A DNA stretch of 64,000 bases from Elusimicrobiota bacterium (GTDB lineage: Bacteria; Elusimicrobiota; JBDRON01), in assembly GCA_043810025.1 (NCBI GenBank), contig JBDRON010000019.1:1204-65203 (forward strand). Direction: 5' to 3'. The notes under the pieces were generated by a model that was not told where the DNA came from, searched no databases, and saw only the letters and a list, made by a program, of their open reading frames with translations. Numbering within the stretch: the stretch's first letter is position 1; each line of letters opens with the position of its first letter. Positions 12,608-49,563 of the stretch are shown here, piece by piece. The position numbers and the translations under genes were made by a program.

Positions 12608-12705
12608 TTCCTCTCCCTTGAGGGGAGAGGATTAAGGTGAGGGTGTTAAAGCTTCGATTCCTTATATTACCCCTCACCCTACCCTCTCCCACAAGGGGAG
12701 AGGGA
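12608..12705 (-). repeat. Palindromic repeat family A (CCCTCTCCC arms) with central TCGA core
   Basis: Near-identical to 25056-25152 and reverse complement of 26127-26223 and 42581-42683. Confidence 0.9.
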
Positions 12706-12742
12706 ACTTAATTGTTAATAATTATTCAAATTCCTATACAAC

Positions 12743-12889
12743 AAGTTACTCCGAGCTTCGCTCAGAACTTTAATACCCCTCTTTTATTAAAGAGGGGCTA
12801 GGGGAGTTTAAAAAGACAGAACCTAACCCCCTTAATCCCCCTTTATCAAAGGGGGAAATTCGATTTTTGTCGAACTTCCAATTTCCTAT
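12743..12889 (-). repeat. Palindromic repeat family B (CCCCTTT/AAAGGGGG hairpins) with leader and tail motifs
   Basis: Reverse-complement similarity to 39928-40094, 50660-50826, 55260-55400. Confidence 0.85.
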
Positions 12890-12940
12890 ACGGCAAGTGG
12901 CTTTCCCAAAACAAGAGAATAGGAAAAAAACAAAAAAAAC

Positions 12941-12969
12941 TTTACATAAACACAGAAAAGTATTATAAT
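12941..12969 (+). promoter_or_regulatory. Sigma70-type promoter of the POR operon
   Basis: TTTACA-17 bp-TATAAT. Confidence 0.7.
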
Positions 12970-13014
12970 CTAGTCTTATTTTTTAGCAGCTAACTAGACG
13001 GAGGAAAATTTAAA

Positions 13015-13584
13015 ATGATTGAAGTGCGTTGGCATGGAAGAGGTGGTCAGGGGGCGAAGACAGCCGCATTGCTTTTGGCTGAAGCCGCTCTGGGCGGAGG
13101 AAAATATGTGCAGGCTTTCCCGGAATACGGGCCGGAACGGATGGGGGCGCCGGTGCAGTCTTTTGATCGCATCGATGATCAACCAATTCGTTTGCATTGC
13201 GGGGTCACTGCTCCCAGAATTGTCGTGGTTTTAGACCCGACCTTAATTGATATAGTGAATGTGACCCAGGGACTTCCTGATGACGGTGTTCTGTTGATTA
13301 ATACGGCCGAAACCCCGCAGGCCCTGCGGCAGAAATTGGGCATCCAGGGAAGAAAAATTTATACAATTGATGCCTCGCTGATTTCCAAAGAGGAAATTGG
13401 CAAGGATATACCGAATACCCCGATGTTGGGGGCTTTAATTAAGGTCACCGGCATTGTGGACAGCGAAAGTTTTATTACCGATACCAGGGCTAAACTGGAG
13501 AAAAAATTCAAAAACAAACTGGCGGTGGTGGATGGTAATATGAAAGCCATCCTTCGCGCTTTTAAGGAGACCAAAAGTGAGTAA
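13015..13584 (+). CDS. porC: Pyruvate/2-oxoacid:ferredoxin oxidoreductase gamma subunit
   Basis: EVRWHGRGGQGAKTAA, FPEYGPERMGAPV. Confidence 0.93.
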   Translation: MIEVRWHGRGGQGAKTAALLLAEAALGGGKYVQAFPEYGPERMGAPVQSFDRIDDQPIRLHCGVTAPRIVVVLDPTLIDIVNVTQGLPDDGVLLINTAETPQALRQKLGIQGRKIYTIDASLISKEEIGKDIPNTPMLGALIKVTGIVDSESFITDTRAKLEKKFKNKLAVVDGNMKAILRAFKETKSE

Positions 13585-13879
13585 TATTCGAAAAGATTCA
13601 ACTTGGAAAGAACTGCCGCTGGGGGCTTTGTTGCCGGAACCGGGCAGCGCGCAAAATTATAAAACGGGCGGCTGGCGCAGTATGCGGCCGAAATTGGATA
13701 AGACTAAATGTATCAACTGTTTGTTTTGTTGGATTTATTGTCCGGATTCGGCCATAATCCTGAAAGATGGCAAGGTTGTGGACATTGACTACGATCATTG
13801 TAAAGGCTGCGGGATTTGCGCTGTGGAATGTCCGGTTAAACCGGTGAAGGCGATAACGATGGAAAAGGAAGGCAAATAA
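13577..13879 (+). CDS. porD: Pyruvate:ferredoxin oxidoreductase delta subunit (2x4Fe-4S)
   Basis: TGGWR, CINCLFCWIYCP, CKGCGICAVECP. Confidence 0.93.
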   Translation: MSNIRKDSTWKELPLGALLPEPGSAQNYKTGGWRSMRPKLDKTKCINCLFCWIYCPDSAIILKDGKVVDIDYDHCKGCGICAVECPVKPVKAITMEKEGK

Positions 13880-13975
13880 TTCGATTTCGGATTTCGGATT
13901 TCAGATTGCGGAAAGTAAAGGATTCGAGTCTTTAAGTTTTTCATTCCGAAATCTGCAATCCGAAATCCGCAATCG
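13880..13975. repeat. Inverted repeat with heptamer (GATTKCG) arms and TCGA core
   Basis: gatttcg/gattgcg tandem units on the left, their complements on the right; core TAAAGGATTCGAGTCTTTAA at 13916-13935. Confidence 0.9.
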
Positions 13976-13992
13976 TAAAATGGGGAGAAAAA

Positions 13993-15207
13993 ATGGAAAC
14001 TAAAGCAAATGTTATAAAGGAAGGCGGGAAAGTCAAAAACATGGTGGCGAAAACAGGGAATGAGGCTTTTGCTGAGGCGATGCGCCAAATCAATCCGGAT
14101 GTGGTGGCGGCTTATCCGATTACGCCGGCGACCGAGGTGGTAATGATTTTTGCCGGTTATGTCGCTGATGGGTTGGTGAAAACGGAGTTTGTTCCGGTGG
14201 AAAGCGAACATAGCGCGATGAGCGCAACGATTGGCGCGGCCGCGGCCGGGGCGCGGGCGATGACCTGTACTTCATCGCAAGGGCTGGCGCTAATGTGGGA
14301 GATGCTTTACATCGCCGCCGGGCTGCGGTTGCCGATCGTGATGCCGGAAGTTAACCGGGCGCTTTCCGCCCCGATTAATATACATTGTGATCATTCCGAT
14401 ACAATGGGTGCCCGCGATGCCGGCTGGATCCAGATATTTTCGGAAAATGCGCAGGAAGCTTATGATAACCTTTTACAGGCGGTGAGGATTGCCGAGAAAG
14501 CTTTACTTCCGGTGATGGTCACCACCGATGGTTTTATTATCAGTCACGGAATGGAAGCGATGGAGATGATCGCCGATGAAGAAGTAAAAAAGTATGTGGG
14601 GGAATACAAGGGACCGTATAATTTATTGGATGTGGATAATCCGGTTACGGTTGGACCTTTGGATTTTACTGATTTTTATTTTGAGCATCGGCGTGCCCAG
14701 GCCGAAGCGATGCGGGTGGCGAAAAGTATTATTTCTGAGGTCAGCGCTGATTTTAAAAAGCAATTTGGACGAGGTGAGACATTTTTTGAGGAATACCGGT
14801 TGTCCGATGCTGAGACGGCGATTGTGGTTTTAGGTTCTACGGCGGGGACGGCGAAGGATGTTGTCGATGAACTGCGGGAGAAAGGGATAAAAGCCGGTCT
14901 GTTAAAAATTCGGGTTTTTCGCCCTTTCCCGGAGGAAGAGTTGGCCGTCGTTTTAGAAAAAATCAAAGCGGTGGCGGTATTGGATCGTTCGGACGGGCTT
15001 AATGCTGTGGGCGGTCCGGTTTATAATGATGTTCGGGCGGCGTTGTTTAACAGCAAAAACCGGCCGGTGATCGTCAATTATATTTATGGGTTAGGCGGAC
15101 GGGAAATAGATCTGGAGCAAATCAGAAAAGTCTATACCGATTTGAAAAATATTTTAGATGGCGGAAAATTTGAAACCAAAGCGCAGTATTTGGGAGTTAG
15201 AGAATAG
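13993..15207 (+). CDS. porA: Pyruvate:ferredoxin oxidoreductase alpha subunit
   Basis: AAYPITP, ESEHSAMS, TSSQGL, YGLGGR. Confidence 0.95.
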   Translation: METKANVIKEGGKVKNMVAKTGNEAFAEAMRQINPDVVAAYPITPATEVVMIFAGYVADGLVKTEFVPVESEHSAMSATIGAAAAGARAMTCTSSQGLALMWEMLYIAAGLRLPIVMPEVNRALSAPINIHCDHSDTMGARDAGWIQIFSENAQEAYDNLLQAVRIAEKALLPVMVTTDGFIISHGMEAMEMIADEEVKKYVGEYKGPYNLLDVDNPVTVGPLDFTDFYFEHRRAQAEAMRVAKSIISEVSADFKKQFGRGETFFEEYRLSDAETAIVVLGSTAGTAKDVVDELREKGIKAGLLKIRVFRPFPEEELAVVLEKIKAVAVLDRSDGLNAVGGPVYNDVRAALFNSKNRPVIVNYIYGLGGREIDLEQIRKVYTDLKNILDGGKFETKAQYLGVRE

Positions 15208-15208
15208 G

Positions 15209-15287
15209 ACGATTGCGGATTTCAGAATTAAAAGGATTCGAATCCTTTAGTTTTTCATTCCGCATTCCGAAATCCGCAATCCGAAAT
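15209..15287. repeat. Inverted repeat with GATTKCG arms and TCGA core
   Basis: Perfect palindromic core AAAGGATTCGAATCCTTT at 15231-15248. Confidence 0.9.
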
Positions 15288-15308
15288 TAAAATAGGGGAG
15301 TTGAAAAA

Positions 15309-16235
15309 ATGCCTTCATTAAAAGAATTAGCCAAACATGAGGAAAAATTGACCGGCGGACACCGGGCCTGTCCAGGCTGCGGGGGAACAATCGTTCTTCG
15401 GCAGATGCTCTTAGCCGCGGGGGATACGCCGGTGGTAGTGTCAGGAGCGACCGGTTGTATGGAAGTGGTGACAACGATTTTTCCCTTTACCAGTTGGAAG
15501 GTGCCGTTTGTTCATTCGGCGTTTGAAAATGCCGCGGCGACGATTAGCGGGGTGGAAGCGGCTTATAATTCTTTAAAAAGACAGGGGAAGATTGCTAAAG
15601 ATATAAAATTTATTGCTTTCGGCGGTGACGGCGGGACCTATGATATCGGTTTTCAGGCTTTATCCGGCGCGATGGAACGGGGACATAACATGCTTTATGT
15701 TTGTTATGACAACCAGGCTTATATGAACACCGGCATCCAGCGGTCGGGAGCCACGCCTTTTGGCGCTAATACCACTACCGCTCCGGCGGGCAAAGCCCAA
15801 CAGGGTAAACAACAGTATCGAAAAAATTTGACCGAGATCATGGTTGCGCACGGTATACCTTTCGCTGCGCAGTCGGTGGTTGGGCTCTGGAATGATTTTA
15901 CCACTAAGGTTCAGAAAGCTTTAAGTGTAGACGGCCCCTGTTTTATTAATGTGCTGGCCCCCTGCCGTTTGGGCTGGCCGCACGATCCCTCGATGACCGC
16001 GCAGGTTGGGAAAATGGCCGCCGACACCTGTTTCTGGCCGGTCTACGAGGTGGAGAACGGCAAGTATAAGATTACTTATCATCCCAAGGCAAAGAAACCT
16101 TTAGCCGACTGGTTAAAGATGCAGGCGCGGTTTAACCATCTCTTTAAACCGGAAAACGCCGCCCTTTTAGAACAGTTCCAAAAACATGTTGACGAAAATT
16201 GGCAGCATTTGCTAAAATTAGCTGGAGAAGTGTAG
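15309..16235 (+). CDS. porB: Pyruvate:ferredoxin oxidoreductase beta subunit (TPP-binding)
   Basis: GHRACPGCG, GGDGGTYDIG, YMNTGIQRS. Confidence 0.95.
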   Translation: MPSLKELAKHEEKLTGGHRACPGCGGTIVLRQMLLAAGDTPVVVSGATGCMEVVTTIFPFTSWKVPFVHSAFENAAATISGVEAAYNSLKRQGKIAKDIKFIAFGGDGGTYDIGFQALSGAMERGHNMLYVCYDNQAYMNTGIQRSGATPFGANTTTAPAGKAQQGKQQYRKNLTEIMVAHGIPFAAQSVVGLWNDFTTKVQKALSVDGPCFINVLAPCRLGWPHDPSMTAQVGKMAADTCFWPVYEVENGKYKITYHPKAKKPLADWLKMQARFNHLFKPENAALLEQFQKHVDENWQHLLKLAGEV

Positions 16236-16304
16236 ATTAAAACAAGTTCTAAAAAATAAGTTAGCATATAATTTCGTTCTTTGTAACAGGCAATTAATCA
16301 TTTG

Positions 16305-16378
16305 TTCCCCGGTAGCTTCAGCCGGAGGCTGATCCGCCTACTTGAATAGCTACCTTGTTGTGGCGGACGATGGTGGAG
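16305..16378 (+). repeat. Interrupted duplicate of the tRNA-Asn 5' end
   Basis: TTCCCCGGTAGCT (16305-16317) equals 16615-16627; then hairpins TCAGCC-GGA-GGCTGA and TCCGCC...GGCGGA; then CGATGGTGGAG matching tRNA CAATGGTGGAG. Confidence 0.8.
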
Positions 16379-16380
16379 TG

Positions 16381-16683
16381 ATGTATAGCGTATATGTGTT
16401 AGTTAGCTTGAAGAATACTAAAAGATATATCGGATGTACTGGCAAAAGTGTTGAGGAGAGATTGTCTGAACATAATGCTGGCGGTAATAGATGGACGAGA
16501 CAAAATAAACCTTTTAAAATATTCTATATTGAAAGGTATAATTTAAAAGAATCAGCTCTTAAAAGAGAGAAATTTTTAAAATCAGGCCAAGGAAGAAAAT
16601 ATTTAGACAGATTATTCCCCGGTAGCTCAATGGTGGAGCACGCGACTGTAAAAATTGCAGCTTTCCCAAGTAATTGGGATTGA
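16381..16683 (+). CDS. Small GIY-YIG nuclease; ORF runs through tRNA exon 1 and stops in the intron
   Basis: VYVLVS...YIGCT, ERLSEHN, ALKREKFLKSGQGR motifs. Confidence 0.85.
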   Translation: MYSVYVLVSLKNTKRYIGCTGKSVEERLSEHNAGGNRWTRQNKPFKIFYIERYNLKESALKREKFLKSGQGRKYLDRLFPGSSMVEHATVKIAAFPSNWD

Positions 16684-16956
16684 AAAAGTGGGTGAATTCA
16701 GGGAAGCCTGTGTTCTCGATCGTTTAAAGATTGGAGGATATGGTAATCCTGAGCCAAGCCTTGAACAGAAATAAACGCGGTTCAAGGAAGGTGCAGAGAC
16801 TAGATCGAAAGATCGTACTGTTCAGCGATGAATGGGAAGCGCCCGCTATCCTGCAGGCGGTTTGAGGCAGGATAATGAGATAGTCCAAGCCTTATGGAAA
16901 CATAAGGGAAACTTGTAATCGCTAGGTTGTAGGTTCAAGTCCTACCCGGGGAGCCA
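16616..16956 (+). tRNA. trnN: tRNA-Asn(GTT) split by a group I intron (exons 16616-16649 and 16916-16956)
   Basis: Spliced sequence folds as a cloverleaf: acceptor TCCCCGG/CCGGGGA, discriminator G, CCA; anticodon arm GCGA-CTGTTAA-TCGC; T arm GTAGG-TTCAAGT-CCTAC. Confidence 0.92.
16650..16915 (+). ncRNA. Group I self-splicing intron, 266 nt, no internal ORF
   Basis: P1 exon CTGT pairs with GCAG (U-G at splice site); P AATTCAGGGAA, Q AATCCTGAGC, R CAGAGACTA, S GATAGTCC; P9 CCTTATG-GAAA-CATAAGG; terminal G. Confidence 0.92.
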
Positions 16957-17087
16957 ATTTGGCAATTATCGTCTATTAAACATAGATATCTGTGAGGGGA
17001 AACCTGAACTTTTCTGATTTAGAGACGAGGGATTGGCCGGATCTGAAACAAAACATTGTCGAGAATTAAATAAATTTGTAAAATTTT

Positions 17088-17345
17088 ATGAAAATGAATA
17101 TATGGGGTTTGCTTTTGTTATCTTCCCTGGTTTTCACATCATTAGGTTTATCTATACAAACTGAATGTTCGTTTGATAATGCAGAATGTATAAATTATTC
17201 TGAAGTTGAGAATAATTCAGCCTTAACCGTTGTTTCAGGAGTAGTTGAAACTTTACTCAACCAAATGTGTTTTATTTTGTTTGACAAAATTCCCACATAT
17301 ACTCAATTTGTAAAAACAATAGAACCTCCCCCAAAAATCGTCTAA
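17088..17345 (+). CDS. Small hypothetical exported protein
   Basis: 85 aa with signal-like N-terminus and C-terminal IEPPPK. Confidence 0.4.
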   Translation: MKMNIWGLLLLSSLVFTSLGLSIQTECSFDNAECINYSEVENNSALTVVSGVVETLLNQMCFILFDKIPTYTQFVKTIEPPPKIV

Positions 17346-17537
17346 AACACTATCATCGGAAAAACCATTTGTATTTCGCTTTGGTTAAATGGTTCCGGCG
17401 TTAGTTTTCTGCATTCATCTTTTCCTAAGGGTTTTTATCTGACTATGTTTGTTCGCGTTAAGCAAAAAGGAGGTTTTTGATGAACATTTTTAAGACCGCC
17501 GCCCGAAAATCCTTTGATAAGATAGGAGGTCTGGGCA

Positions 17538-18110
17538 ATGGACAGAATATCAAGAAGTTTGGAAGATGAGTTTTTCTTTAAAAAAGATCTTGAACTTATG
17601 GAAAAACAACGGGTTTTAAAACAGATGAAAGAAACAAAGGAAGCGATAAAAGAAGTTTCCGGTATACAAGATGAAAATCTTTTGCAAAGACTTGTTGAGT
17701 TAAATATACGGCCTGAAACAGTGGCTTCGCTGGCGATAGTTCCTTTGATTGAAGTTGCCTGGGCAAACGGCAGTATAGACCAAAAAGGAAAAAAAGCGGT
17801 ACTCGCGACGGTTAATAAGTTTGGCTGGTCAAACAATAGCATTGATTATATCCTTTTGGAACGCTGGCTTGAACATAAACCCGATCCCGCTTTGCTGGAG
17901 GCCTGGGCGCATTACATCGGCTATGTTTGCGCGAAAATGAAACCCGATGAAGTAAGGAGATTTAAAACGGAAATAATGTCGCATGCTAAGGCGATTGCCG
18001 AGATCAGCGGCGGATTTTTAGGTATAGGGAGTATATCCCAGCAGGAAAAGGAAATGTTGGAAATAATTGAGAATGCTTTTCTACCTAACAGTGAGGAAAA
18101 ACATGATTGA
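17538..18110 (+). CDS. Hypothetical protein, TerB-like fold
   Basis: LEDEFFFK, PLIEVAWANG, AIAEISGGFLGIG; good RBS GGAGG. Confidence 0.65.
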   Translation: MDRISRSLEDEFFFKKDLELMEKQRVLKQMKETKEAIKEVSGIQDENLLQRLVELNIRPETVASLAIVPLIEVAWANGSIDQKGKKAVLATVNKFGWSNNSIDYILLERWLEHKPDPALLEAWAHYIGYVCAKMKPDEVRRFKTEIMSHAKAIAEISGGFLGIGSISQQEKEMLEIIENAFLPNSEEKHD

Positions 18111-18798
18111 GACAATTTTAGAAGTTGTTCTTCATTTTGACCGGCATTTGAATATGTTTGTCCAATATTTCGGTATTTGGACATATCTTATTCTTTTTCT
18201 GATTATCTTTGCTGAAACAGGGTTGGTGATTATGCCGTTTTTGCCGGGGGACTCTTTGCTTTTTGTTGTAGGAGCTCTTGCCGCAGCCGGATCTTTTGAT
18301 GTTTTCTGGCTTATTTTTTTGCTTTCCGTTGCCGGGATAATTGGAGATAGTGTTAATTATGCGATCGGCAAATATTTTAGCGACAGGGTGATTAATAAAA
18401 CACTCGGGAAGTTTATCAAAAAAGAACACCTTGACCGGACTCACAGTTTTTATGAAAAGTACGGAGGAAAAACAATTGTTATAGCCAGATTTGTGCCCAT
18501 TGTCAGAACCTTTGCCCCGTTTGTGGCAGGTATTGGTAAAATGAGTTACATGAAGTTTGCAATTTACAATGTTCTGGGCGGCATTCTGTGGGTAAGTTCG
18601 ATTGTTTTGGCCGGATATTATTTCGGCAATATCCGTATGATAAAAGAAAATTTTTCTTTAATAGCATTGGGTATTATTTTTGTTTCCATACTTCCGTTTA
18701 TAATTGAGTACCTGCGTTATCGTTTAGGGAAAAAGACAAATAAAACAACGTATCCCAAAGTCTGTAATGCTGAAGAAAAACAGGTGGTTACCGGCTAA
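18103..18798 (+). CDS. dedA: DedA family membrane protein
   Basis: FAETGLV.PFLPGDSLLF, ARFVPIVRTFAPFVAG. Confidence 0.93.
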   Translation: MIETILEVVLHFDRHLNMFVQYFGIWTYLILFLIIFAETGLVIMPFLPGDSLLFVVGALAAAGSFDVFWLIFLLSVAGIIGDSVNYAIGKYFSDRVINKTLGKFIKKEHLDRTHSFYEKYGGKTIVIARFVPIVRTFAPFVAGIGKMSYMKFAIYNVLGGILWVSSIVLAGYYFGNIRMIKENFSLIALGIIFVSILPFIIEYLRYRLGKKTNKTTYPKVCNAEEKQVVTG

Positions 18799-18881
18799 AA
18801 CCAGGTAAAAATTATCGCCATCTATTTTAACAATTACTCGCAGTCCAATAGCAATCCTAAATTCCGTCCCCCAATTATTCC

Positions 18882-18932
18882 TTGACAAAGCAAAATAAGC
18901 ATGTTACGATATATGCATATAAATGCAAATAT
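18882..18932 (+). promoter_or_regulatory. Promoter with adjacent ArsR-type operator
   Basis: TTGACA-17 bp-TACGAT with extended TG; imperfect inverted repeat ATATATGCAT-ATAA-ATGCAAATAT. Confidence 0.65.
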
Positions 18933-18955
18933 GCAACAATAATAAGGAGCCTGAG

Positions 18956-19321
18956 ATGGGATACACAGCAGCTTTTAAGGCGTTGTCGGATATGACCAGA
19001 TTAAGGGTCCTGTATGTGCTGCTCAAGGCAAAAAGGGAGGTCTGTATTTGTGAATTGATGGATTCACTTGAAATAAAACCATATCACGCATCAAGGTGTC
19101 TGAGAGAGTTGAAGATAGCAGGATTTGTCAGAGAGAAAAAAGAAGGAAGATTTGTTTTTTACAAAACAAACGATCTTAAAGACAATTTTCTCCATAAGTT
19201 GTTCCGTTTGATAGCGTCTCTCCCGGAAAAAGAATTCAAGGAAGACATATCAAGGATGAACAAAAGGCTTCATTTAAGAAAAAACGGGAAAGTAGTCGTC
19301 ACAATGAGGAGAAAGAAATGA
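18956..19321 (+). CDS. ArsR/SmtB family transcriptional repressor
   Basis: FKALSDMTRLRVL, EVCICEL, GRFVFY; RBS AGGAG. Confidence 0.9.
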   Translation: MGYTAAFKALSDMTRLRVLYVLLKAKREVCICELMDSLEIKPYHASRCLRELKIAGFVREKKEGRFVFYKTNDLKDNFLHKLFRLIASLPEKEFKEDISRMNKRLHLRKNGKVVVTMRRKK

Positions 19322-20487: not shown

Positions 20488-20498
20488 AGGATTATTCG

Positions 20499-20735
20499 AT
20501 GAAAATTGAAATTTTCGGACCGGGCTGCGCAAAATGCAATAGTCTGGAAAAGCAGGTTAAGGATGCGGTAAAAGAACTGAACATCGATGCCGAAGTTGTA
20601 AAAGTATCCGATATTAACGCTATGGTAAGCAGGGGCGTAATGTTGACACCGGCGCTTTTCATCGGCGGCAAGAAAAAAAGCGAAGGCAGGGCGCCAAATT
20701 ATGAGGAAATTAAGAAATATTTAAAGGAGGCATAG
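20499..20735 (+). CDS. Small thioredoxin-like redox-active disulfide protein
   Basis: MKIEIFGPGCAKC...GVMLTPAL. Confidence 0.9.
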   Translation: MKIEIFGPGCAKCNSLEKQVKDAVKELNIDAEVVKVSDINAMVSRGVMLTPALFIGGKKKSEGRAPNYEEIKKYLKEA

Positions 20736-20764
20736 AATGAACGGAAAAGTTCCGAGAGAAAAGA

Positions 20765-20950: not shown

Positions 20951-21011
20951 TAATGTTCAGGGGAATATTTGGTTCCTGCTCGAAAAGTCTGTTTGTCGAG
21001 GGGGGAAGAAA

Positions 21012-25012: not shown

Positions 25013-25152
25013 TAGTCCGAGCTTCGTTCGGAACTTTAGTTACATTGAAAGACATTTCCTCTCCCTTGATGGGAGAGGATTAAGGTGAGGGTGTTAAAGT
25101 TTCGATTCCCTTATTGCCCCTCACCCTTCCCTCTCCCACAGGGGGAGAGGGA
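25013..25152 (-). repeat. Family A repeat (25056-25152) with tail motif (25013-25037)
   Basis: Matches 12608-12705; core TTAAAGTTTCGATTCCCTTA at 25094-25113. Confidence 0.9.
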
Positions 25153-25164
25153 ACATCAAAAACC

Positions 25165-26126: not shown

Positions 26127-26223
26127 TTCCCTCTCCCCTTGCGGGAGAGGGTAGGGTGAGGGGCAATAAAGGAATCGAATCTTTAACACCCTCACCTTAA
26201 TCCTCTCCCCTCAAGGGAGAGGA
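26127..26223 (+). repeat. Family A repeat with TCGA core
   Basis: Core TAAAGGAATCGAATCTTTAA at 26167-26186. Confidence 0.9.
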
Positions 26224-26260
26224 GAAAAACTTCAAATGATTGTACTTCTAAGGAGAAAAA

Positions 26261-27729: not shown

Positions 27730-27820
27730 GTTATAGGTCATGAGTTGTGGGTTATGGGTCGTGAGTTTAAAGAAATCGATTATTTTAGACTCGAGACACA
27801 CGACTCGCTGCACAAGACTT
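27730..27820. repeat. Inverted repeat with heptamer (GRGTYRT) arms and TCGA core
   Basis: Core TAAAGAAATCGATTATTTTAG at 27768-27788; arms similar to 47334-47425. Confidence 0.75.
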
Positions 27821-30613: not shown

Positions 30614-30691
30614 CCAGCCTAAGAGTCATTAGCCTAGGAGTCGTTAGTAAAAGACTTCAAAAGCTTCTAGGCTCTTAAGCTTTTAGGCTGG
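30614..30691. repeat. Inverted repeat with AGCCTA(A/G)GAG arms and degenerate core
   Basis: CCAGCCTAAGAG...CTTTTAGGCTGG; centre TAAAAGACTTCAAAAGCTT. Confidence 0.7.
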
Positions 30692-30699
30692 TGTTACTT

Positions 30700-30778: not shown

Positions 30779-30862
30779 AATGCGGATTTTGGAATGCGGA
30801 TTGCGGATAGAAAAACTAAAAGACTCAAGTTCTTTTAATTCCGCAATCTGAAATCCGCATTC
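30779..30862. repeat. Inverted repeat with GAWTGCG arms and degenerate core
   Basis: Reverse-complement relative of 15209-15287; core CTAAAAGACTCAAGTTCTTTTAA. Confidence 0.85.
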
Positions 30863-40711: not shown

Positions 40712-41986
40712 ATGGAAAAAGCGCTTTTAGTTGCTTTTCAGCCGGCAAGCGGCAAGAGAAGCGAGATGGAAAATTCATTGTCGGAGCTGGCCAGATTAGT
40801 TGATACGGCTGGCGGCAAGGTTGTGGAGAAAATATTTCAAAAGAGGGCGGCGGTTGATCCGGCAACTTACATCGGTCGCGGGAAAGCGGAGGAAATAGCC
40901 GGGATTTGCGCGGGAGAAGATATCAACGTGGTGGTTTTTGATGACGATCTAAGCCCGGGCCAACAGCGCAATTTAGAAAAGATTCTGAAAACAAAAGTAA
41001 TTGATCGGACGCGGTTAATTCTCGATATATTTGCCCGGCGGGCGCGGACACGGGAGGGCCGTCTGCAAGTGGAATTAGCCCAGTTAAAATATCTCCAGCC
41101 GCGCTTAGGGGGAAAAGGCCTGGCCCTATCGCAGCAGGCGGGAGGTATCGGCACAAGAAGAGGTCCGGGCGAAAAGAAATTGGAAGTTGATCAGCGTAAA
41201 ATCCGCGATCGAATATCCCTCTTAGAAAAAGAAACCGGCAAAGTTCAATCCCAGCGGCAAAGACAACGGCAAAAAAGAGAAGAAGTTCCTTTGCCGGTGG
41301 CCGCCTTAATTGGCTACACTAACTCCGGAAAATCCACATTTTTGAACGCTTTAGTGAAAACTTCCGCCGTCTACGCTGACGACAAACTCTTTGCCACCCT
41401 CGATCCGACGACCCGGCGGGTAACGCTCCCGGGAGGTCAAAAAGTCCTTTTTACGGATACCGTAGGTTTTATTCAAAAGCTTCCCCATCAACTGGTAGCC
41501 GCTTTCCGCGCCACATTAGAAGAGATAAAAGAGGCTGATTTATTGCTCCATCTTGTCGATGTTTCTAATGCCGCCTGGGAAGAGCAAGTGGACACCGTGA
41601 ATAAGGTTTTAAGAGAACTGGAGATAATTGATAAACCGGTAGTTGTTGTTTATAATAAAATTGATTTAGCTAACCGGCAGAAATTAATTGAGTTGCAAAA
41701 AGAGGGGTGTTTGTTGATTTCAGCAATTAACGGGCAGGGCCTTGATTTTCTTTTAAAAAAAATCAGCAAATTTTTTCAAAAAGATCTGCGCCTGTTAAAA
41801 TTTTGCCTCCCTTACGAAAAAATCGGTTTATTGGGATATATTCACGAACGAGGCAAAGTTGAAGAAGAAAAATACGGTAAAAAAGGACTTAGTTTAAAAG
41901 TCTGGCTCGATTCCAAAAATATTAGTATAATCGAAAGCAAGCTCAAAATGCAAAGCGCAAAACGCAAAACGAAAGTCAAAAGCTAA
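40712..41986 (+). CDS. hflX: GTPase HflX
   Basis: ILDIFARRA, GYTNSGKST, LFATLDPT, DTVGFI, NKID. Confidence 0.96.
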   Translation: MEKALLVAFQPASGKRSEMENSLSELARLVDTAGGKVVEKIFQKRAAVDPATYIGRGKAEEIAGICAGEDINVVVFDDDLSPGQQRNLEKILKTKVIDRTRLILDIFARRARTREGRLQVELAQLKYLQPRLGGKGLALSQQAGGIGTRRGPGEKKLEVDQRKIRDRISLLEKETGKVQSQRQRQRQKREEVPLPVAALIGYTNSGKSTFLNALVKTSAVYADDKLFATLDPTTRRVTLPGGQKVLFTDTVGFIQKLPHQLVAAFRATLEEIKEADLLLHLVDVSNAAWEEQVDTVNKVLRELEIIDKPVVVVYNKIDLANRQKLIELQKEGCLLISAINGQGLDFLLKKISKFFQKDLRLLKFCLPYEKIGLLGYIHERGKVEEEKYGKKGLSLKVWLDSKNISIIESKLKMQSAKRKTKVKS

Positions 41987-42030
41987 AAGAATCGAGTCTT
42001 TTAAACTTTGAGTTTTGCGCTTTGCGTTTT
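41938..42030. repeat. Inverted repeat with heptamer (CGCAAAA) arms and TCGA core
   Basis: Core TAAAAGAATCGAGTCTTTTAA at 41984-42004; reverse-complement relative at 49460-49563. Confidence 0.88.
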
Positions 42031-42042
42031 ACACTGACTTTT

Positions 42043-42570: not shown

Positions 42571-42580
42571 ACTCTTGATG

Positions 42581-42683
42581 TTCCCTCTCCCCTTGTGGGA
42601 GAGGGCAGGGTGAGGGGACGATTAATAAAGAAATCGAGTCTTTAACACCCTCACCTTAATCCTCTCCCCTCAAGGGAGAGGAA
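42581..42683 (+). repeat. Family A repeat with TCGA core
   Basis: Core TAAAGAAATCGAGTCTTTAA at 42626-42645. Confidence 0.9.
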
Positions 42684-42723
42684 ATAGATGGCTAAGTTCT
42701 TTTTTTTCCGGAGTCTAATTCAG

Positions 42724-43965: not shown

Positions 43966-44042
43966 TTCTGTTTTTACTTGTTATACAATTAAATGTCTGA
44001 TATAATTTCTCTAGAATATAATTATGTGGAGGTGAAGATGTT

Positions 44043-44273
44043 ATGTCGATTAATTTAAAAGCCTTTGAAATGAAAGCGATTAAACTTCCTTTGAAAGAGC
44101 GGGCAAAGCTAGCAGAATATTTAATTAGAAGCCTCGACAAAATTGATGATTCTGAAAATGAACGGTTATGGGTTAAAGAAGCAGAAAGAAGGTATAATGA
44201 TTATAAGAAAGGAAAAATGTCCAGCAGACCCGCAGAAGAAGTTTTAAGATACGCTCATAAAATATTAAAATGA
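44043..44273 (+). CDS. Addiction module antitoxin
   Basis: LPLKERAKLA..LIRSLD...WVKEAERR. Confidence 0.85.
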   Translation: MSINLKAFEMKAIKLPLKERAKLAEYLIRSLDKIDDSENERLWVKEAERRYNDYKKGKMSSRPAEEVLRYAHKILK

Positions 44274-44563
44274 AGAATATTTCTTTTCTTAAAGCCGCCG
44301 AAGATGAAATGCTTGATGCCGCGTTGTTTTACGAGTCCCAGGCAAAGCATCTGGGGAAAGATTTTCTCTATAAAATTGAGACTGCTCTAACTGACATCTC
44401 TTTAAATCCAATGCAATGGCCCATCATTGATCGCGATATCCATCGCCGATTACTACACCGGTTTCCTTACGCAATTCTTTACAAAATTGATAAAATGAAA
44501 ATTATTATAGTTGCCATAATGCATTTGCACCGTCACCCTGATTATTGGATGGAAAGAATCTAA
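44270..44563 (+). CDS. RelE/ParE family toxin
   Basis: AALFYE, RRLLHRFPYAILY, HLHRHPDYW. Confidence 0.9.
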   Translation: MKNISFLKAAEDEMLDAALFYESQAKHLGKDFLYKIETALTDISLNPMQWPIIDRDIHRRLLHRFPYAILYKIDKMKIIIVAIMHLHRHPDYWMERI

Positions 44564-44587
44564 TAATTTTCTAAAAATTAACGATAA

Positions 44588-44788
44588 AGTCCTGAAAGGA
44601 CGCCGGAATATAGGCGGGGGTTTTTACCCCCGAAAAAGAAATATTCCGCGAGCCATAAGCCCTGAAAGGGCGCAGGACAAAATATGCTAAGCGTCGAGAA
44701 ACGCCTTTGCCCCTTCGGGGCTTGCATTATATTGGACAATCTTAGCGGGGATTACATCCCCGCCTATATTCCAAAATCCCTTCGGGAT
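44588..44788. mobile_element. Non-autonomous palindromic element resembling the flanks of IS200/RAYT-like HUH transposase genes
   Basis: GTCCTGAAAGGAC and GCCCTGAAAGGGC hairpins on the left, GCCCCTTCGGGGC and ATCCCTTCGGGAT on the right; GGAATATAGGCGGGG / CCCCGCCTATATTCC inverted pair. Confidence 0.65.
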
Positions 44789-44921
44789 AAAATATAAAAG
44801 CAGCAATCACCGCCCGCAATCAAGGCGAGCGAGAAGTGATAATAGCAGGCGACAACGAAATTAAAAACATGTATGTTGGAAAAATGGATTAAATTTGTTA
44901 TAATTATTATGGAGATAAACA

Positions 44922-45182
44922 ATGCCGGAAATTAGCAGGTTTCTCGGAATTATCATATCAATGTATTTCAAAGAACATGCGCCGCCTCATTTTCACGCTA
45001 AATATGCTGGAAGGCGAGCGGCATTTTCCATAAGCGATTTGAAGATTATTGAGGGAAGTTTGCCCAAAAGAGTTGTTTCTATCGTGTTAGAATGGGCTTT
45101 TGAACATCGGAATGAATTACTGGAAGATTGGAATAGAGCGCAAAAACATGAAAATATTAAAAAAATTAAACCATTAGTTTAG
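44922..45182 (+). CDS. DUF4160 family protein
   Basis: MPEISRFLGI, EHAPPHFHA, ELLEDW. Confidence 0.9.
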   Translation: MPEISRFLGIIISMYFKEHAPPHFHAKYAGRRAAFSISDLKIIEGSLPKRVVSIVLEWAFEHRNELLEDWNRAQKHENIKKIKPLV

Positions 45183-45193
45183 GAGGTGTAAAG

Positions 45194-45427
45194 ATGCATT
45201 GGATAAAAGATTTTACTTATATCGAGAATTATAAAATAAAAATAGTGTTCGAAAATCGAAAATGTAAAATAGTGGATTTAAAAAATCATCTTACCGGTAA
45301 GGTTTTTGAACCACTAAAAGATATTTCATATTTTAGAAAAGTCAAATTGAACAAAGATATTGACACCATTGTTTGGCCCAATAATGCGGATTTTTCTCCA
45401 GATTTTTTATATGAGGTTGGAAAATAA
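45194..45427 (+). CDS. DUF2442 family protein
   Basis: VFEPLKD..YF, TIVWPNNADFSPDFLY. Confidence 0.9.
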   Translation: MHWIKDFTYIENYKIKIVFENRKCKIVDLKNHLTGKVFEPLKDISYFRKVKLNKDIDTIVWPNNADFSPDFLYEVGK

Positions 45428-45465
45428 TAACCGTTTCCTACCATAGAAAAAGGAAGCATTAATTT

Positions 45466-46065
45466 ATGTTCCCTAATTTACTCTTAATTATTTCGGCTTA
45501 TTTAATCGGTTCTATCCCGGCGGGATATTGGCTGGTGTGGTTTTGGCGGGGGGTTGATGTGCGCCAGTCGGGCAGCGGCAATATCGGGGCGACTAATGTT
45601 GCCCGCGCAGCCGGGAAAACCGCCGGCATAATTACTCTGGTTTTGGATATTTTTAAAGGATGGCTGCCGGTTTATCTGGCGGTTCATTTTTTTCAGTTTA
45701 ATTATTATTGGGCTTTCGGGGCCGGGGTGGCGGCAATTCTTGGACATAACTATACGATATTTTTAAATTTTAAAGGCGGAAAAGGGGTGGCTACCAGCGC
45801 CGGAGTTTTTCTTGCGCTTACCCCCCTGGCTCTTCTATTCAGCCTGCTGATTTTTCTGTTGATTGTGGCGGCGAGTAAATATGTTTCCCTCGGTTCAATC
45901 ATTGCGGCGATCAGTTTGCCGGTTTTTGGTTTCTTTTTCCGCTATCCAACAGAGTTAATTGTTTTTATTTGTCTGGCGGCGGCGCTGATTATTTTTAAAC
46001 ACCGGCCGAACATTAAAAGGCTTATTCAGGGAAAGGAGAACCGTCTAAATTGGGGAAAAAAATAG
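45466..46065 (+). CDS. plsY: Glycerol-3-phosphate acyltransferase
   Basis: YLIGSIP, GSGNIGATN, FKGGKGVAT, KHRPNI.RL. Confidence 0.96.
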   Translation: MFPNLLLIISAYLIGSIPAGYWLVWFWRGVDVRQSGSGNIGATNVARAAGKTAGIITLVLDIFKGWLPVYLAVHFFQFNYYWAFGAGVAAILGHNYTIFLNFKGGKGVATSAGVFLALTPLALLFSLLIFLLIVAASKYVSLGSIIAAISLPVFGFFFRYPTELIVFICLAAALIIFKHRPNIKRLIQGKENRLNWGKK

Positions 46066-47072
46066 AAAAAATCGCTGTGCTCGGCGCTGGTTCATGGGGA
46101 GCTGCTATCGCCGCTCATCTCTCTCGTAACGGGCATGATCTTAGTCTTTGGGAGTTCGATTCTCAGCAGGCCGAACTGCTTAAAGAGAACAGGGTGTTGT
46201 CGCTGCTGCCAACGTTTACGATACCGGCACAAATTAAAATTACCTCGCAGTTGGAGGAGGCTGTAGATGGGCGGGAGATAATTATTTTCGCCGTGCCGTC
46301 ACATTTTATCCGTTCTACCGCTCAAGCGGCGATTAAAGCCAATTTTAATCCGCAGATCGTAATTAGCGCGGCCAAAGGGATAGAAAACGAAACGATGTTC
46401 CGGATGTCGGAAGTTTTGGAAGAGGAGTTGGGAATAAATTTTAAAGACAAAATTGTGGTCCTCTCCGGGCCCAGCCATGCGGAAGAAGTTTTCCGGCAGA
46501 TTCCTACGGCGGTGGTCTCGGCCAGCAGCAATCCGAAAGCGGCTTTAAAGGCGCAGGAAATATTTACCAACGATTTTTTTCGGGTCTATACCAACCCCGA
46601 TGTCGTGGGGGTGGAAACAGGCGCGGCTTTGAAAAATGTGATTGCCATTGGCTGTGGTATTTGCGACGGGTTGGGTTTGGGCGACAACAGCAAGGCGGCC
46701 TTAGTTACCAGGGGATTGCAGGAATTGGTGCGGCTGGGTCTAAAAATGGGGGCGCAGGAAAAAACTTTTTTTGGTCTGGCCGGTGTCGGCGACTTGATTG
46801 TCACTTGTTTTTCCCGGCACAGCCGTAACCGCCTACTGGGAGAAAAAATTGGCCAGGGTAAAACTTTGGCTGAAGCTTTAGGGGAAATGACGATGGTTGC
46901 CGAGGGGGTAAAAACCGCCAAGGCTATACACAGTTTGAGCAAAAAATACCAGTTGGATTTGCCGATCTCCGATGAGGTATATAAAATTCTTTACGAAGGG
47001 AAAAAACCGGAGACGGCGGTGCGCGATCTGCTTACCCGGCAGGCGACAACGGAGATAAAAAACTATGAATAA
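46050..47072 (+). CDS. gpsA: NAD(P)H-dependent glycerol-3-phosphate dehydrogenase
   Basis: GAGSWG, SGPSHAEEV, LKNVIAI, GDLIVTC.SRHSRNR. Confidence 0.96.
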   Translation: MGKKIEKIAVLGAGSWGAAIAAHLSRNGHDLSLWEFDSQQAELLKENRVLSLLPTFTIPAQIKITSQLEEAVDGREIIIFAVPSHFIRSTAQAAIKANFNPQIVISAAKGIENETMFRMSEVLEEELGINFKDKIVVLSGPSHAEEVFRQIPTAVVSASSNPKAALKAQEIFTNDFFRVYTNPDVVGVETGAALKNVIAIGCGICDGLGLGDNSKAALVTRGLQELVRLGLKMGAQEKTFFGLAGVGDLIVTCFSRHSRNRLLGEKIGQGKTLAEALGEMTMVAEGVKTAKAIHSLSKKYQLDLPISDEVYKILYEGKKPETAVRDLLTRQATTEIKNYE

Positions 47073-47325
47073 ACAGGATTTAATCAAAAAAATTCGCCAA
47101 ATAACCCATACCCAAAAAGATGCCGGCGACATTATGGATCTGCTGCTGGAAAGCATGAAATCCGCTTTACGGCAAGGCGACCGGGTAGTACTTTCCGGTT
47201 TTGGCAGTTTCTATCCGAAAATGCGCCGGGCCAAAAAAGCCCGGCACCCCAAAAGCGGCGAAATGATTATTATCTCTGCTAAAAAAATCGTCAAATTCAT
47301 CCCCTCCCCAAATTTGTTTGAATAG
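47065..47325 (+). CDS. HU/IHF family DNA-binding protein
   Basis: MNKQDLI, GFGSF, ARHPKSGE. Confidence 0.92.
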   Translation: MNKQDLIKKIRQITHTQKDAGDIMDLLLESMKSALRQGDRVVLSGFGSFYPKMRRAKKARHPKSGEMIIISAKKIVKFIPSPNLFE

Positions 47326-47333
47326 CTTACCTC

Positions 47334-47425
47334 GGTTATGAGTTATGAGACTTGAGTCTTGGGTTTAAAAGAATCGATTCCTTTAACCCTACAACACACG
47401 ACCCACAGCTCATGACACATAACTT
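47334..47425. repeat. Inverted repeat with heptamer (GAGTTAT) arms and TCGA core
   Basis: Core TTAAAAGAATCGATTCCTTTAA at 47365-47386. Confidence 0.8.
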
Positions 47426-47498
47426 GTGACCCTTTCTCTTTCTGTTTGCAGTAATTTCCATTGCGAGGGGCGGATTTTTTTTGTATATTCTAATGCTA

Positions 47499-48767
47499 AT
47501 GGGTAAATTTAGTCAGTATACCGAGCGGGAAAATAAAGAAAGTGTCATTCTTTTTTTGGGAATTATCCTGGCCAACATCGTAAATTATCTTTTTTACATG
47601 TTCATCAGCCGGATGCTCGGGCCGGCCAATTACGGGGCCTTTAATTCTTTGCAGGCGCTTTTTCTCATCTTCTTCCTGCCGGCGGAAACCATCAGGCTGG
47701 TGATCACCAAATATGTCAGTAATTTAAAAGTGTCGGAGAATTTGGGGGAGATCAATCATCTGATTCGCCAGTCTTTCTTCCGTCTTTTTGCCGTTGGTTT
47801 GCTGGGAGCGATGGTGATCGTCATTCTTTCCCCCGGAATTGCCCGCTTCCTTAAATTGGATGATTTTAAGCCGGTCTGGGTGGTCGCTTTACTTATTCCT
47901 TTGATCTTGACGGCTCCTGTAGGGTTCGGCTTACTGCAAGGATTACAACGATTTGTCGTTTTGGGGATGAGCACCTTTGTGGCGACAATATTTCGCTTAA
48001 TTTCCGGGGTGTTGTTCGTTTGGGCGGGCTGGGGGATCAGTGGCGCCTTAGGCGGGTTGTTGACGCAAAATATTTTCACTTTGTTGATTATTTTCTGGGT
48101 TACCCGGTCATTATTTAAAGAAGAACGGTTAATCAAACAGACTTCGAGACAGGACATTTATACCTATTTTATCCCTGTGGCCATCGCTCTTTCCTCTTTA
48201 GCGGTGTTAACCAACATTGATATGCTCTTGGTTAAACATTATTTTACCGCCGAAGAGGCCGGATTTTATTCGGCGGCTTCGCTTCTGGGAAAAGCCGTCG
48301 TTTTCCTGGCCGGCGGGGTGATTTTGATCATGTTTCCAAAAGTTTCGGAGTTGGATGCGCAAAAAAAACAAACATTTTTGCTTTTGAAAAAATCCCTGGT
48401 TTATAGTATAATAATTGCTTTGACATCGGCCTTGATTTTTACGGCTGCTCCGAACTTGTTAATCAAAATTCTCTTTGGAAAAAAGTATATTTCGGCTGCT
48501 CCGGCGCTGTTAATTGATTTTGGTTACGCGATGATTCCCCTGATTCTGTTAAATGTAATTGTAAATTATAATTTGGCGATTCATCGCTGGAAATTTTTAT
48601 ATTTTCTGGTTGGGGGAACAATTGTCCATTGTTTGCTGTTAACGGTCTTTCATCGCAGTCTCCAACAGGTAATTCTGGTGATCGGAGTAAGCGGGCTGGT
48701 GAATTTTTTACTTCTTGGTTTGCTCACTTACGGAGAGAAAAATGCTCATTCTGCTGCCGGCGTATAA
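47499..48767 (+). CDS. Oligosaccharide flippase (Wzx-like)
   Basis: About 12 TM segments; RMLGPANYG, DMLLVKHYF..EEAGFYSAA. Confidence 0.85.
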   Translation: MGKFSQYTERENKESVILFLGIILANIVNYLFYMFISRMLGPANYGAFNSLQALFLIFFLPAETIRLVITKYVSNLKVSENLGEINHLIRQSFFRLFAVGLLGAMVIVILSPGIARFLKLDDFKPVWVVALLIPLILTAPVGFGLLQGLQRFVVLGMSTFVATIFRLISGVLFVWAGWGISGALGGLLTQNIFTLLIIFWVTRSLFKEERLIKQTSRQDIYTYFIPVAIALSSLAVLTNIDMLLVKHYFTAEEAGFYSAASLLGKAVVFLAGGVILIMFPKVSELDAQKKQTFLLLKKSLVYSIIIALTSALIFTAAPNLLIKILFGKKYISAAPALLIDFGYAMIPLILLNVIVNYNLAIHRWKFLYFLVGGTIVHCLLLTVFHRSLQQVILVIGVSGLVNFLLLGLLTYGEKNAHSAAGV

Positions 48768-49455
48768 CGAAGCCTTTTCCCTCCCTGATCTGGCGGCCAA
48801 CATTGCTCAAGCTTTGCCCGCAGATAGTTATCGAATCATTTTAATTGACGACGGCTCTACGGACGGCACTGCAGCGGTAATAGAAAATCTGACAAAAAAA
48901 TATCCTTTAAGCTGTATTTCCCATTCGGTGAACAGGGGATTAGGCGCGGCGATAAAAACCGGGTTTAAGTTTGCCATCAGGGAAAAAGACGATTATATCA
49001 TCACGATGGATGCCGATAATACCCATCCGCCCTCAGCGATAATTCCGATGCTGGAGAAACTTGATTCCGGAATCGATGTGGTCATCGCCTCCCGTTATGC
49101 GCCGGAGGGAAAAACGCAGGGGGTAAGTGTTTTTCGGCAGGTTTTGAGCAATGGGGCAAGTTTATTGTTAAGGTTGGTTTTTCCGATTCCCGGGGTGCGG
49201 GATTACACCTCCGGTTTTCGCGCCTATCGGCGGGAAACGTTGGCTAAAGCTTTTCAGGTCTATGGGGATAATTTTATCACGGCCGGCGATTTCAGCTGTA
49301 TGGCCGAGGTCCTGGTTAAATTAGCCAAGTTAGGAATAAAAGCCGCAGAAGTTCCCCTGCATTTAAGATATGACCGGAAAAAAGGGAAAAGTAAAATAAA
49401 GATAATCAGAACAATTATTAGTTACGCAAAATTAATTTGGAAGGAGAGAATTTAA
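48742..49455 (+). CDS. Glycosyltransferase family 2 (DPM1-like)
   Basis: LPAYNEA, DDGSTDGT, MDADNTH, DYTSGFRAY. Confidence 0.92.
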   Translation: MLILLPAYNEAFSLPDLAANIAQALPADSYRIILIDDGSTDGTAAVIENLTKKYPLSCISHSVNRGLGAAIKTGFKFAIREKDDYIITMDADNTHPPSAIIPMLEKLDSGIDVVIASRYAPEGKTQGVSVFRQVLSNGASLLLRLVFPIPGVRDYTSGFRAYRRETLAKAFQVYGDNFITAGDFSCMAEVLVKLAKLGIKAAEVPLHLRYDRKKGKSKIKIIRTIISYAKLIWKERI

Positions 49456-49459
49456 ATAG

Positions 49460-49563
49460 TGTAAAACGCAAAGCGCAGAACGCAAAGTGTAAAAACATTA
49501 AAAGACTCGAAGCTTTTAGTTTTTGACTTTCGTTTTATGTTTTGCGCTTTGAGTTTTACGCTC
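49460..49563. repeat. Inverted repeat with CGCAAAA-type arms and TCGA core
   Basis: Core TTAAAAGACTCGAAGCTTTTAG at 49498-49519. Confidence 0.88.

Follow-up and report, generated by a model that had tools for sequence, protein, structure and literature searches.

A conserved 20-bp core at the centre of fold-back elements with unrelated arms in an Elusimicrobiota genome

The sequence analysed is a 64,000-nucleotide stretch (the window) of the genome of an Elusimicrobiota bacterium (contig C19, positions 1204-65203, in an assembly of 2.38 Mb in 116 contigs with 43% G+C, referred to as G000), in which twelve inverted repeats with arms of five types enclose one 20-bp quasi-palindromic core with the consensus T-A-A-A-R-G-A-N-T-C-G-A-N-T-C-Y-T-T-T-A. 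Throughout the genome, this homologous core is tied to the apex of fold-back elements from at least eight mutually unalignable arm families, is more conserved than the arms, and is constrained in its sequence. The explanation tentatively preferred here is that the twelve sites are part of a genome-wide population of ~100 non-coding fold-back elements, in which a homologous core spread among the arm families and would be kept by a trans-acting protein that binds or cuts DNA.

Occurrence of the core and its arm families

The window was searched on both strands for TAAARGNNTCGANNCTTTTA with up to three mismatches, giving 23 strand-matches against 3.52 expected (largest 10), and none of 100 dinucleotide-preserving shuffles reached 23. 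One match, at 4004, was unarmed and chance-like, and the remaining matches were the twelve sites named by the first-pass annotation, eight of them at exactly the coordinates given there and four slightly displaced (30648 to 30658, 30816 to 30817, 47365 to 47366, and 49498 to 49499). The five arm types were also as described there: CCCTCTCCC hairpins at four sites, GATTKCG at three, GRGTYRT at two, CGCAAAA at two, and AGCCTAA at one. With 110 nt inspected per side, every core in the window was enclosed by an inverted repeat of 80-105 bp, and each of eight elements, when folded as a single strand, formed a single long hairpin whose tip is the core (z = -2.7 to -6.9). A restriction-site reading of the TCGA centre was discarded, TCGA not being avoided (observed/expected 1.01).

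The genome-wide scan that the annotation had proposed as a check was run with a position weight matrix (PWM) built from 64 seed cores, and returned 124 cores at a score of at least 12, against 1, 3, and 1 in three shuffled genomes, and 86 at the strict cutoff of at least 20, against 0, 1, and 0. Complementary flanks were present at 97 of the 124 cores with a local score of at least 12, and at 84 with a score of at least 14, where the 99th percentile over 2000 random positions was 11.5. Assigned by arm signature, 62 cores belonged to F1 (GTCATGA-type), 17 to F2 (CGCAAAA), 13 to F8 (CCCTCTCCC hairpins), four each to F3 (GATTGCG) and F4 (CAGAATT/CAGGAGT), and two each to F5 (GTAAGGT) and F7 (AGCCTAA). 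By eye, the 20 unclassified cores consisted of ~9 one-armed or degenerate family members, 9 low-scoring matches in ordinary sequence, and 2 strong but armless cores (C42, 19459; C66, 17389); the other armless matches either scored low (12-15) or were interrupted by a repeat resembling an insertion sequence (IS) or by a contig feature. The core is therefore almost never found away from the centre of an inverted repeat, and the association with such centres noted in the window extends to the genome.

Weaker cores were also present within CCACAGT (F6) and GGTCAGTG arms, so that the sharing of one homologous core by unrelated arm families, noted from five families in the window, holds for at least eight in the genome. 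Most of these families consist of tandem heptamers, F7 and F8 being the non-heptameric ones, and period-7 arrays numbered 196 at a strict threshold, against none in a shuffled genome. F1 is a conserved, asymmetric repeat of ~105 bp present in both orientations, its apparent two subfamilies being reverse complements of one another. Among 47 oriented F1 copies, the core had a mean pairwise identity of 0.82 and the arms one of 0.61, in an ungapped, core-anchored alignment that penalises arm indels. One chimeric element (C63, 23260) has an F1-like left arm and an F4 right arm joined at the core.

The elements behave as selfish repeats of ~100 bp, of the type of MITEs (miniature inverted-repeat transposable elements) or BIMEs (bacterial interspersed mosaic elements). 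Terminal inverted repeats matching an autonomous IS with a transposase, as in classical MITEs, were not found (no exhaustive IS search was made); the arms vary by family, and the only coding partner is a four-helix-bundle gene. Other heptamer families of the genome (ATCAAAA-type, AATTATG-type) form inverted pairs around coreless centres of 59-78 nt or ~183 nt (for example C54, 20350-20503; C89, 9370-9533; C8, 7477-7752).

The twelve elements of the window, with folding z-scores for the eight that were folded, are as follows.

12608-12706: F8 element (CCCTCTCCC hairpins), core 12646-12665
13880-13975: F3 element (GATTKCG heptamers), core 13916-13935, in the gap between 2-oxoacid:ferredoxin oxidoreductase delta and alpha genes, z -5.3
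15208-15288: F3 element, core 15230-15249, in the gap between 2-oxoacid:ferredoxin oxidoreductase alpha and beta genes, z -4.3
25056-25153: F8 element, core 25094-25113, upstream of a UbiA-family gene
26127-26224: F8 element, core 26167-26186, in the gap between UbiA-family and motA-like genes, z -6.9
27736-27820: F1 element (GRGTYRT heptamers), core 27768-27787, in the gap between motB-like and pyruvate phosphate dikinase genes, z -3.8
30615-30695: F7 element (AGCCTAA units), degenerate core 30658-30677 with 3 mismatches, just before tRNA-Arg
30779-30862: F3 element, degenerate core 30817-30836 with a TCAA centre, just after tRNA-Arg
41942-42035: F2 element (CGCAAAA heptamers), core 41984-42003, in the gap between hflX and a CDP-alcohol phosphatidyltransferase gene, z -2.7
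42581-42683: F8 element, core 42626-42645, before a der/engA-like GTPase gene, z -4.5
47334-47423: F1 element in reverse orientation, core 47366-47385, after an HU-family gene, z -3.8
49459-49563: F2 element, orientation opposite to that at 41942-42035, core 49499-49518, between two glycosyltransferase genes, z -5.8

Elements occupy short gaps in housekeeping operons, such as those of hflX-pgsA-der, often at stop codons, and in either orientation. Among intergenic cores, 97 of 107 lay between co-directional genes, compared with 1707 of 1990 gaps genome-wide (p = 0.20), and there is therefore no enrichment between co-directional genes. Of 83 distances between an arm edge and its nearest stop codon, 45 fell in the range -15 to +12 nt, so that many reading frames end at or inside an arm. 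Whether orientation follows transcription had been posed as a question by the first-pass annotation; among 54 F1 copies, 23 were sense, 14 antisense, 7 ambiguous, and 10 in other contexts, which gives no significant preference (23 vs. 14, binomial p = 0.19).

A separable centre constrained as DNA

Arm and centre are separable modules. The sole PF05635 four-helix-bundle gene of the genome (C16, 12491-12811, E = 7e-29; 23S rRNA intervening-sequence (IVS) or Avd-like) lies between F1-type arms at the usual place of the core, with its reading frame extending into the right arm, and the sole DUF559 gene (C94, 15518-15844), beside a CRISPR array, lies between CCCCTC-type hairpins resembling F8 arms. 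An association of such arms with four-helix-bundle and DUF559 genes, which the annotation had mentioned for other genomes, is thereby borne out inside this genome, for GRGTYRT (F1) arms and for CCCCTC-type hairpins, respectively. A looser period-7 detector found 53 inverted pairs of heptamer arrays separated by at most 60 nt, comprising 37 with a core (PWM score of at least 12), 4 with a weak core, and 12 with other centres, which were mutually unrelated and 8-59 nt long. Arms of F1, F2, F3, and F6 were each found both with and without the core. Since F1 arms surround the four-helix-bundle gene or other unique centres, the centre is modular. In contigs of three groundwater DNA runs, which come from a related population, hold a minor fraction of the sampled words, and were used just for the joints reported here, both F8 arms of one window element (42581-42617 and 42646-42683) were matched, and the sequence in between was divergent.

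Pairing was counted on the sense strand in 74 elements lying between co-directional genes with an arm score of at least 14, where Watson-Crick pairs accounted for 1982 of the aligned arm positions, G·U for 129, A·C for 118, and other mismatches for 219. An RNA hairpin under selection should tolerate G·U more readily than A·C; as no such excess was seen on the sense strand (129 vs. 118, p = 0.52), selection acting on the RNA strand is unsupported. Arm complementarity itself was considered as a sign of selection and set aside, the 81% Watson-Crick pairs (1982/2448) being, by our estimate, close to the level for arms drawn independently from a unit of GTYRTGR type.

Within 100 cores, positions 5 and 16 were A-T in 36, A-C in 34, G-T in 28, and G-C in 2, giving 38 Watson-Crick pairs where 55.6 would be expected if the positions were independent, and positions 8 and 13 gave 25 where 36.3 would be expected; covariation between these symmetric positions was thus absent. 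The core being conserved over the arms, without covariation and without a G·U excess, it is constrained as a DNA sequence and not through RNA pairing. Against the same counts, and with F1 orientation at 23 sense vs. 14 antisense, the suggestion of the annotation that the core is an RNA loop signal displayed on interchangeable stems found no support. An Rfam search of the window at gathering thresholds returned only a group I intron and tRNA, the elements matching no covariance model. Mimicry of a tRNA T-arm and UUCG-type loops were considered by eye and rejected, as the commonest variants, AATCGATT and AATCGAGT, do not fit.

Most cores combine one TAAAGGA half with one TAAAAGA half, so that only one of the two sides has G at position 5. 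By eye, F1, F2, F3, and F4 and two contigs of other organisms share the asymmetric form TAAAGGA-N-TCGAGTCTTTTA, which argues for one ancestral sequence for the cores, with the letters constrained rather than the pairing. From this comparison of sequences, the cores look as if they were captured from a single source rather than converged; of the two alternatives offered by the first-pass annotation, that unrelated repeat families had converged on or captured a common core, the shared asymmetry of most families and the rarity of G-C (2/100) favour capture and speak against convergence.

Distribution, mobility and competing explanations

Insertion of an element is seen as a polymorphism between G000 and a related Elusimicrobiota contig, L207. 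A metagenome scan of at least 120 stretches had three armed heptamer copies among the matches listed (L207, L193, and L116). L207 is ~90% identical to contig C72 of G000, with proteins 78-98% identical, and in the DNA alignment of the two, L207 has an insertion of 110 nt close to the 3' end of a ribonucleotide-reductase gene, where the site is empty in G000. It is made up of CTAGGGT-type arms around the core, with T-runs, and its arm heptamer is present in G000 only as solo arrays. Such solo (C/T)NAGGG(A/G)T arrays, with no inverted partner, are found at C24, 355, at C33, 25423, at C65, 136, and at six more places, some of them, by eye, just upstream of start codons. In a related strain of the groundwater data, window positions 47330-47447, which hold an F1 element, are replaced by 52 other letters.

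L193 is a Patescibacteria contig (threonyl-tRNA synthetase 93% identical to that of a Patescibacteria metagenome-assembled genome (MAG)), in which the core, within GGAGTAG arms, separates a stop codon from thrS; in the nearest genomes (93% and 74% identity in the same protein), that place has a small terminator-like hairpin and no core. L116 is a twin of the Rhodothermales genome G245, with the core flanked by GGYAAAA arms. TAAAAG and CTTTTA are already part of these arm units, which leaves just 8 nt of additional centre, and where this arm family is found elsewhere in G245 the centres are unique and 24-45 nt long; the L116 core is possibly a chance match. Two other metagenome matches among those listed, L164 and L181, are long non-heptamer palindromes around the same 20-mer. 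Rhodothermales hairpins at L239, 2535-2610 (a MAG), and L231, 2972-3040, have the GTCATGR unit of F1 around the centre AAAAAC, and L239/L231 hairpins also stand at the post-stop-codon site of L116, with related GNNAAAA units and the centre TCA.

The 40 phylum relatives gave 5 single 1-mismatch matches, all within ordinary sequence, vs. 1 for a control pattern; core matches were found in 3 of 285 Rhodothermales genomes, one of the three being the twin of L116, vs. 2 for the control; and 4 of 401 Patescibacteria genomes matched, vs. 8 for the control, with none armed. A scan of GTDB contigs gave 54 single matches, none armed (best arm score 11), and viral contigs gave 4, likewise without arms. 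PF05635 four-helix-bundle genes were present in 54 of 151 sampled Elusimicrobiota genomes, and each of 29 such loci inspected in relatives had private heptamer arms, while no core half could be recognised where the gene begins or ends.

In the tentatively preferred explanation, the elements would be gene-less members of a class of heptamer-armed cassettes that includes the 23S rRNA IVS bearing an open reading frame (ORF) and derivatives of these that lack a gene. Each element would consist of an arm, a centre, and an inverted arm, where the arms would be interchangeable, either two complementary runs of ~four 7-base units or a GC-rich hairpin pair sufficing, and the centre would be a separate module holding a small gene (four-helix-bundle or DUF559), a unique short filler, or, mostly, the 20-bp core. 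Several arm families, already in existence, would have acquired one homologous core at their centres, either inserted into the apex or brought there by recombination, and this core would then have multiplied along with the arms of each family, being kept because a putative trans-acting DNA-binding or DNA-cutting protein reads its sequence during propagation or maintenance of the element. What the sequences show is the abundance of the core, its link to arms, the modular centre, one insertion polymorphism, and a constraint on letters rather than on pairing; both the reading of the core by a protein and its route between arm families are inferred.

Several observations weigh against this explanation. 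No trans-acting partner protein for the core was identified in G000; around its six Y1 (HUH) transposase-like genes, one reverse transcriptase gene, and four-helix-bundle gene, no core was found within 3 kb save one weak, chance-level match (PWM score 13.7) near one Y1 gene. A core that hitch-hiked in a few successful founders would also appear conserved within families. The gene-less hairpins of the relatives G074, G006, G118, and G031 (~370 kb of DNA) have other centres, and the core was absent from 466 kb of relatives' DNA, where the best match was a degenerate, one-armed copy in G006 (PWM score 14.9). No multi-core genome was found among the 40 relatives, 285 Rhodothermales, and 401 Patescibacteria, which a general host factor would not predict. 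L207 and C72 form the sole clean pair of a filled and an empty site, with a possible 5-bp target duplication, AGTCA/TATCA, that is imperfect. The cross-phylum evidence is thin, L193 being a single contig and L116/G245 maybe a chance match.

Of the rivals, the one that retains most weight, while being unlikely, holds that the core is a tiny mobile palindrome that enters heptamer hairpins already in place at their single-stranded tip, the arms being only its preferred landing site. A model for such a unit is offered by the small dispersed repeats (SDR) of Nostoc, which Elhai et al. in 2008 reportedly described, from filled and empty sites, as mobile repeats of 21-27 nt inserted in other repeats. 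The presence of the same arm families with and without the core is in keeping with this, as are the form of the core common to most families (by eye) and its position within unrelated arms, including those of L207, an arm type found solo in G000, and of the Patescibacteria contig. No pair of otherwise identical hairpins differing by the core alone was found in this material, however, and the coreless centres are unrelated sequences of 8-59 nt rather than empty joints; strong cores are almost never located outside hairpins, a self-standing element of 20 bp would be remarkably short, and no enzyme for it is apparent. It is doubtful, too, that the 20-bp asymmetric quasi-palindrome is itself the heritable unit, with the arms secondary, moving between or seeding heptamer hairpins in phyla as distant as Elusimicrobiota and Patescibacteria.

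An improbable alternative takes the core as the remnant of a lost cargo gene, joining a purine-rich ribosome-binding leader, placed immediately within the left arm, to a complementary T-rich trailer immediately within the right arm. The core does lie at the exact position of the cargo, A-rich leaders at the left arm and GTTTTT-type runs at the right arm were seen by eye in loaded cassettes (29 junctions), and several core-bearing families retain an unpaired GTTTTT beside the GAGTCTTT half. Yet independent deletions in at least eight families would not yield the same 20 bases with the same asymmetry, and empty hairpins in other genomes have different centres. Nor were recognisable core halves present at the gene borders of the C16 copy or of the 29 loaded cassettes of relatives, which also leaves unsupported the excision scar of an empty cassette put forward by the annotation. 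A search for cores split around cargo, with half-cores (1 mismatch) paired 30-6000 bp apart, gave chance-level noise and no arm-associated pairs.

Hardly better placed is the possibility that the elements act as RNA, as intercistronic hairpins serving as RNase III sites or REP-like (repetitive extragenic palindromic) stabilisers of 3' ends, with the core as a loop signal. Since the elements lie within operons they must be transcribed, they fold into long hairpins, and they hug stop codons (the 45 of 83 distances given above); moreover, the stems of rRNA IVS and the Correia repeat enclosed elements (CREE) of Neisseria are RNase III substrates (PMC4990558 and PMC2649163, respectively). The lack of a sense-strand G·U excess, of an orientation preference, of pairing covariation in the core, and of any Rfam match speaks against it, and an RNA role of the stem, while possible, would leave the conserved apex sequence unexplained.

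Regulons of nucleoid- or chromosome-organising proteins show a pattern that ~100 copies of a 20-bp quasi-palindrome would fit. That the core is a site for such a host protein (IHF/HU-like, or Noc/SlmA/ParB-like) carried by selfish repeats is nevertheless very improbable, since the two HU/IHF-family genes of the genome and the precedents of BIME-1 (PMC3333891) and CREE (PMC2649163) stand against the near absence of strong cores outside hairpins, relatives without the core, the same core in a different phylum, and a by-eye match of only 11/13 to the IHF consensus WATCAANNNNTTR. One of the two HU/IHF-family genes (window 47065-47325) abuts the element with the core at 47366, a proximity read as chance.

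Related systems and neighbouring sequences

Close in design are the ORF-bearing 23S rRNA IVS (PF05635, the S23p of Coxiella and Leptospira) and heptamer-armed four-helix-bundle cassettes, which share the two inverted runs of ~four heptamers, the position at stop codons or in operon gaps, and the existence of loaded and gene-less forms, one F1 copy holding a PF05635 gene. They differ in that the G000 copies are almost all gene-less and have one 20-bp core across at least eight arm families.

The first-pass annotation knew of no named element with this design, which is overstated, as two systems share the layout. BIME-1 of E. coli has a conserved L linker, containing an IHF site, between two REPs in inverted orientation (PMC3333891), and is like the present elements in being intergenic, of high copy number, and built of inverted palindromic units around a conserved linker, which in BIME-1 binds a protein; REPs are also IS targets (PMC3333891). 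Its arms, however, are GTAG-tagged REPs of related types (y, z1), mobilised or cut by a REP-associated tyrosine transposase (RAYT), whereas those of G000 are unrelated heptamer arrays. GTAG- or CGTC-tagged REP arms with a flanked RAYT gene were not found in G000, where no Y1 gene is adjacent to an element, and the conserved centre, 20 bp long, has by eye only the 11/13 match to the IHF consensus given above. CREE are MITE-like, of ~70-157 bp, have a conserved core enclosed by inverted repeats, with binding of IHF and RNase III (PMC2649163), and, like the present elements, lie beside genes, are co-transcribed, and are present or absent between strains (PMC2649163); they have one terminal-repeat family, in contrast to the several unrelated arm families around one core in G000.

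The 'putative global regulator binding sites' of Geobacter metallireducens, classes 1-4, are runs of heptamers or octamers, four to five in tandem and for the most part paired on opposite strands, and their class 3 consensus, MTYCTGA, corresponds to the F4 heptamer of G000 in reverse complement (PMC2700814); no shared central core is described in the text and legends consulted of that report. REPINs are hairpin-forming doublets of ~100 bp that multiply within a genome (PMC3116915). The REPIN-RAYT system has conserved arms, the REPs, and a variable spacer, the reverse of G000, and no single-copy flanked RAYT was seen among its six Y1 genes. In literature searches confined to heptamer or short tandemly repeated repetitive (STRR) sequences, inverted repeats, four-helix bundles, intervening sequences, and small dispersed repeats, a description of this core was not found.

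To our knowledge, inverted heptamer arrays have been known for decades, as cyanobacterial STRR, as Geobacter 'regulator sites', and as the arms of rRNA IVS, and have gone unexplained. G000 constitutes a clean natural experiment on them, with many arm families, one shared centre, alternative centres, a loaded copy, and a filled and an empty site, and turns the spread of heptamer repeats into a testable question, namely what binds or cuts this 20-mer. Should the 20-bp sequence prove to be the heritable unit, it would rank among the smallest mobile or recombinogenic modules known, and would give a first handle on whatever enzyme makes heptamer hairpins, STRR-type repeats, and rRNA intervening sequences and disperses them; should nothing bind it, the elements would be another family of selfish intergenic palindromes.

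Among possible partner genes, a heptamer array lies within 3 kb of only one of the six Y1_Tnp genes. Five paralogues of ~335 aa have an N-terminal Y1 (HUH) domain (C56, 3566-4573; C100, 18905-19909; C112, 1184-2158; C41, 1020-1997; C24, 9184-9753) and a C-terminus that, by eye, resembles a DnaA-type helix-turn-helix. In the 151 Elusimicrobiota genomes, this 335-aa Y1 protein and PF05635 occurred together in 29, Y1 alone in 14, the four-helix-bundle gene alone in 25, and neither in 83, a co-occurrence that, uncorrected for phylogeny or genome size, is a lead only.

Two abundant repeats border some of the elements. An IS-like repeat ending in TGTAACTACTCAGGT has ~33 ends, many at contig ends (for example C14, 8083; C32, 9901; C26, 138; C35, 129; C31, 9810), and lies inside or directly beside 5 heptamer elements, once within the core, which is reminiscent of REP-targeting IS. 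A second abundant repeat end, TCAATCGCGGTTCTTGG with its variants, has ~40 sites in G000 (for example C13, 1102; C25, 123; C36, 2170), and several F1 elements adjoin GCAATCGCGGTTCTAGG, a sequence related to it.

Elsewhere in the window, a full-length group I catalytic intron (Rfam RF00028, 94.9 bits) is located at 16640-16907 on the forward strand, downstream of the oxidoreductase operon, where ARAGORN found no tRNA. A ParE-toxin-like gene and a DUF4160 gene lie at 44270-45182, and within 44624-44907 the groundwater runs showed higher contig depth together with several joints, suggestive of a further repeat or a variable islet.

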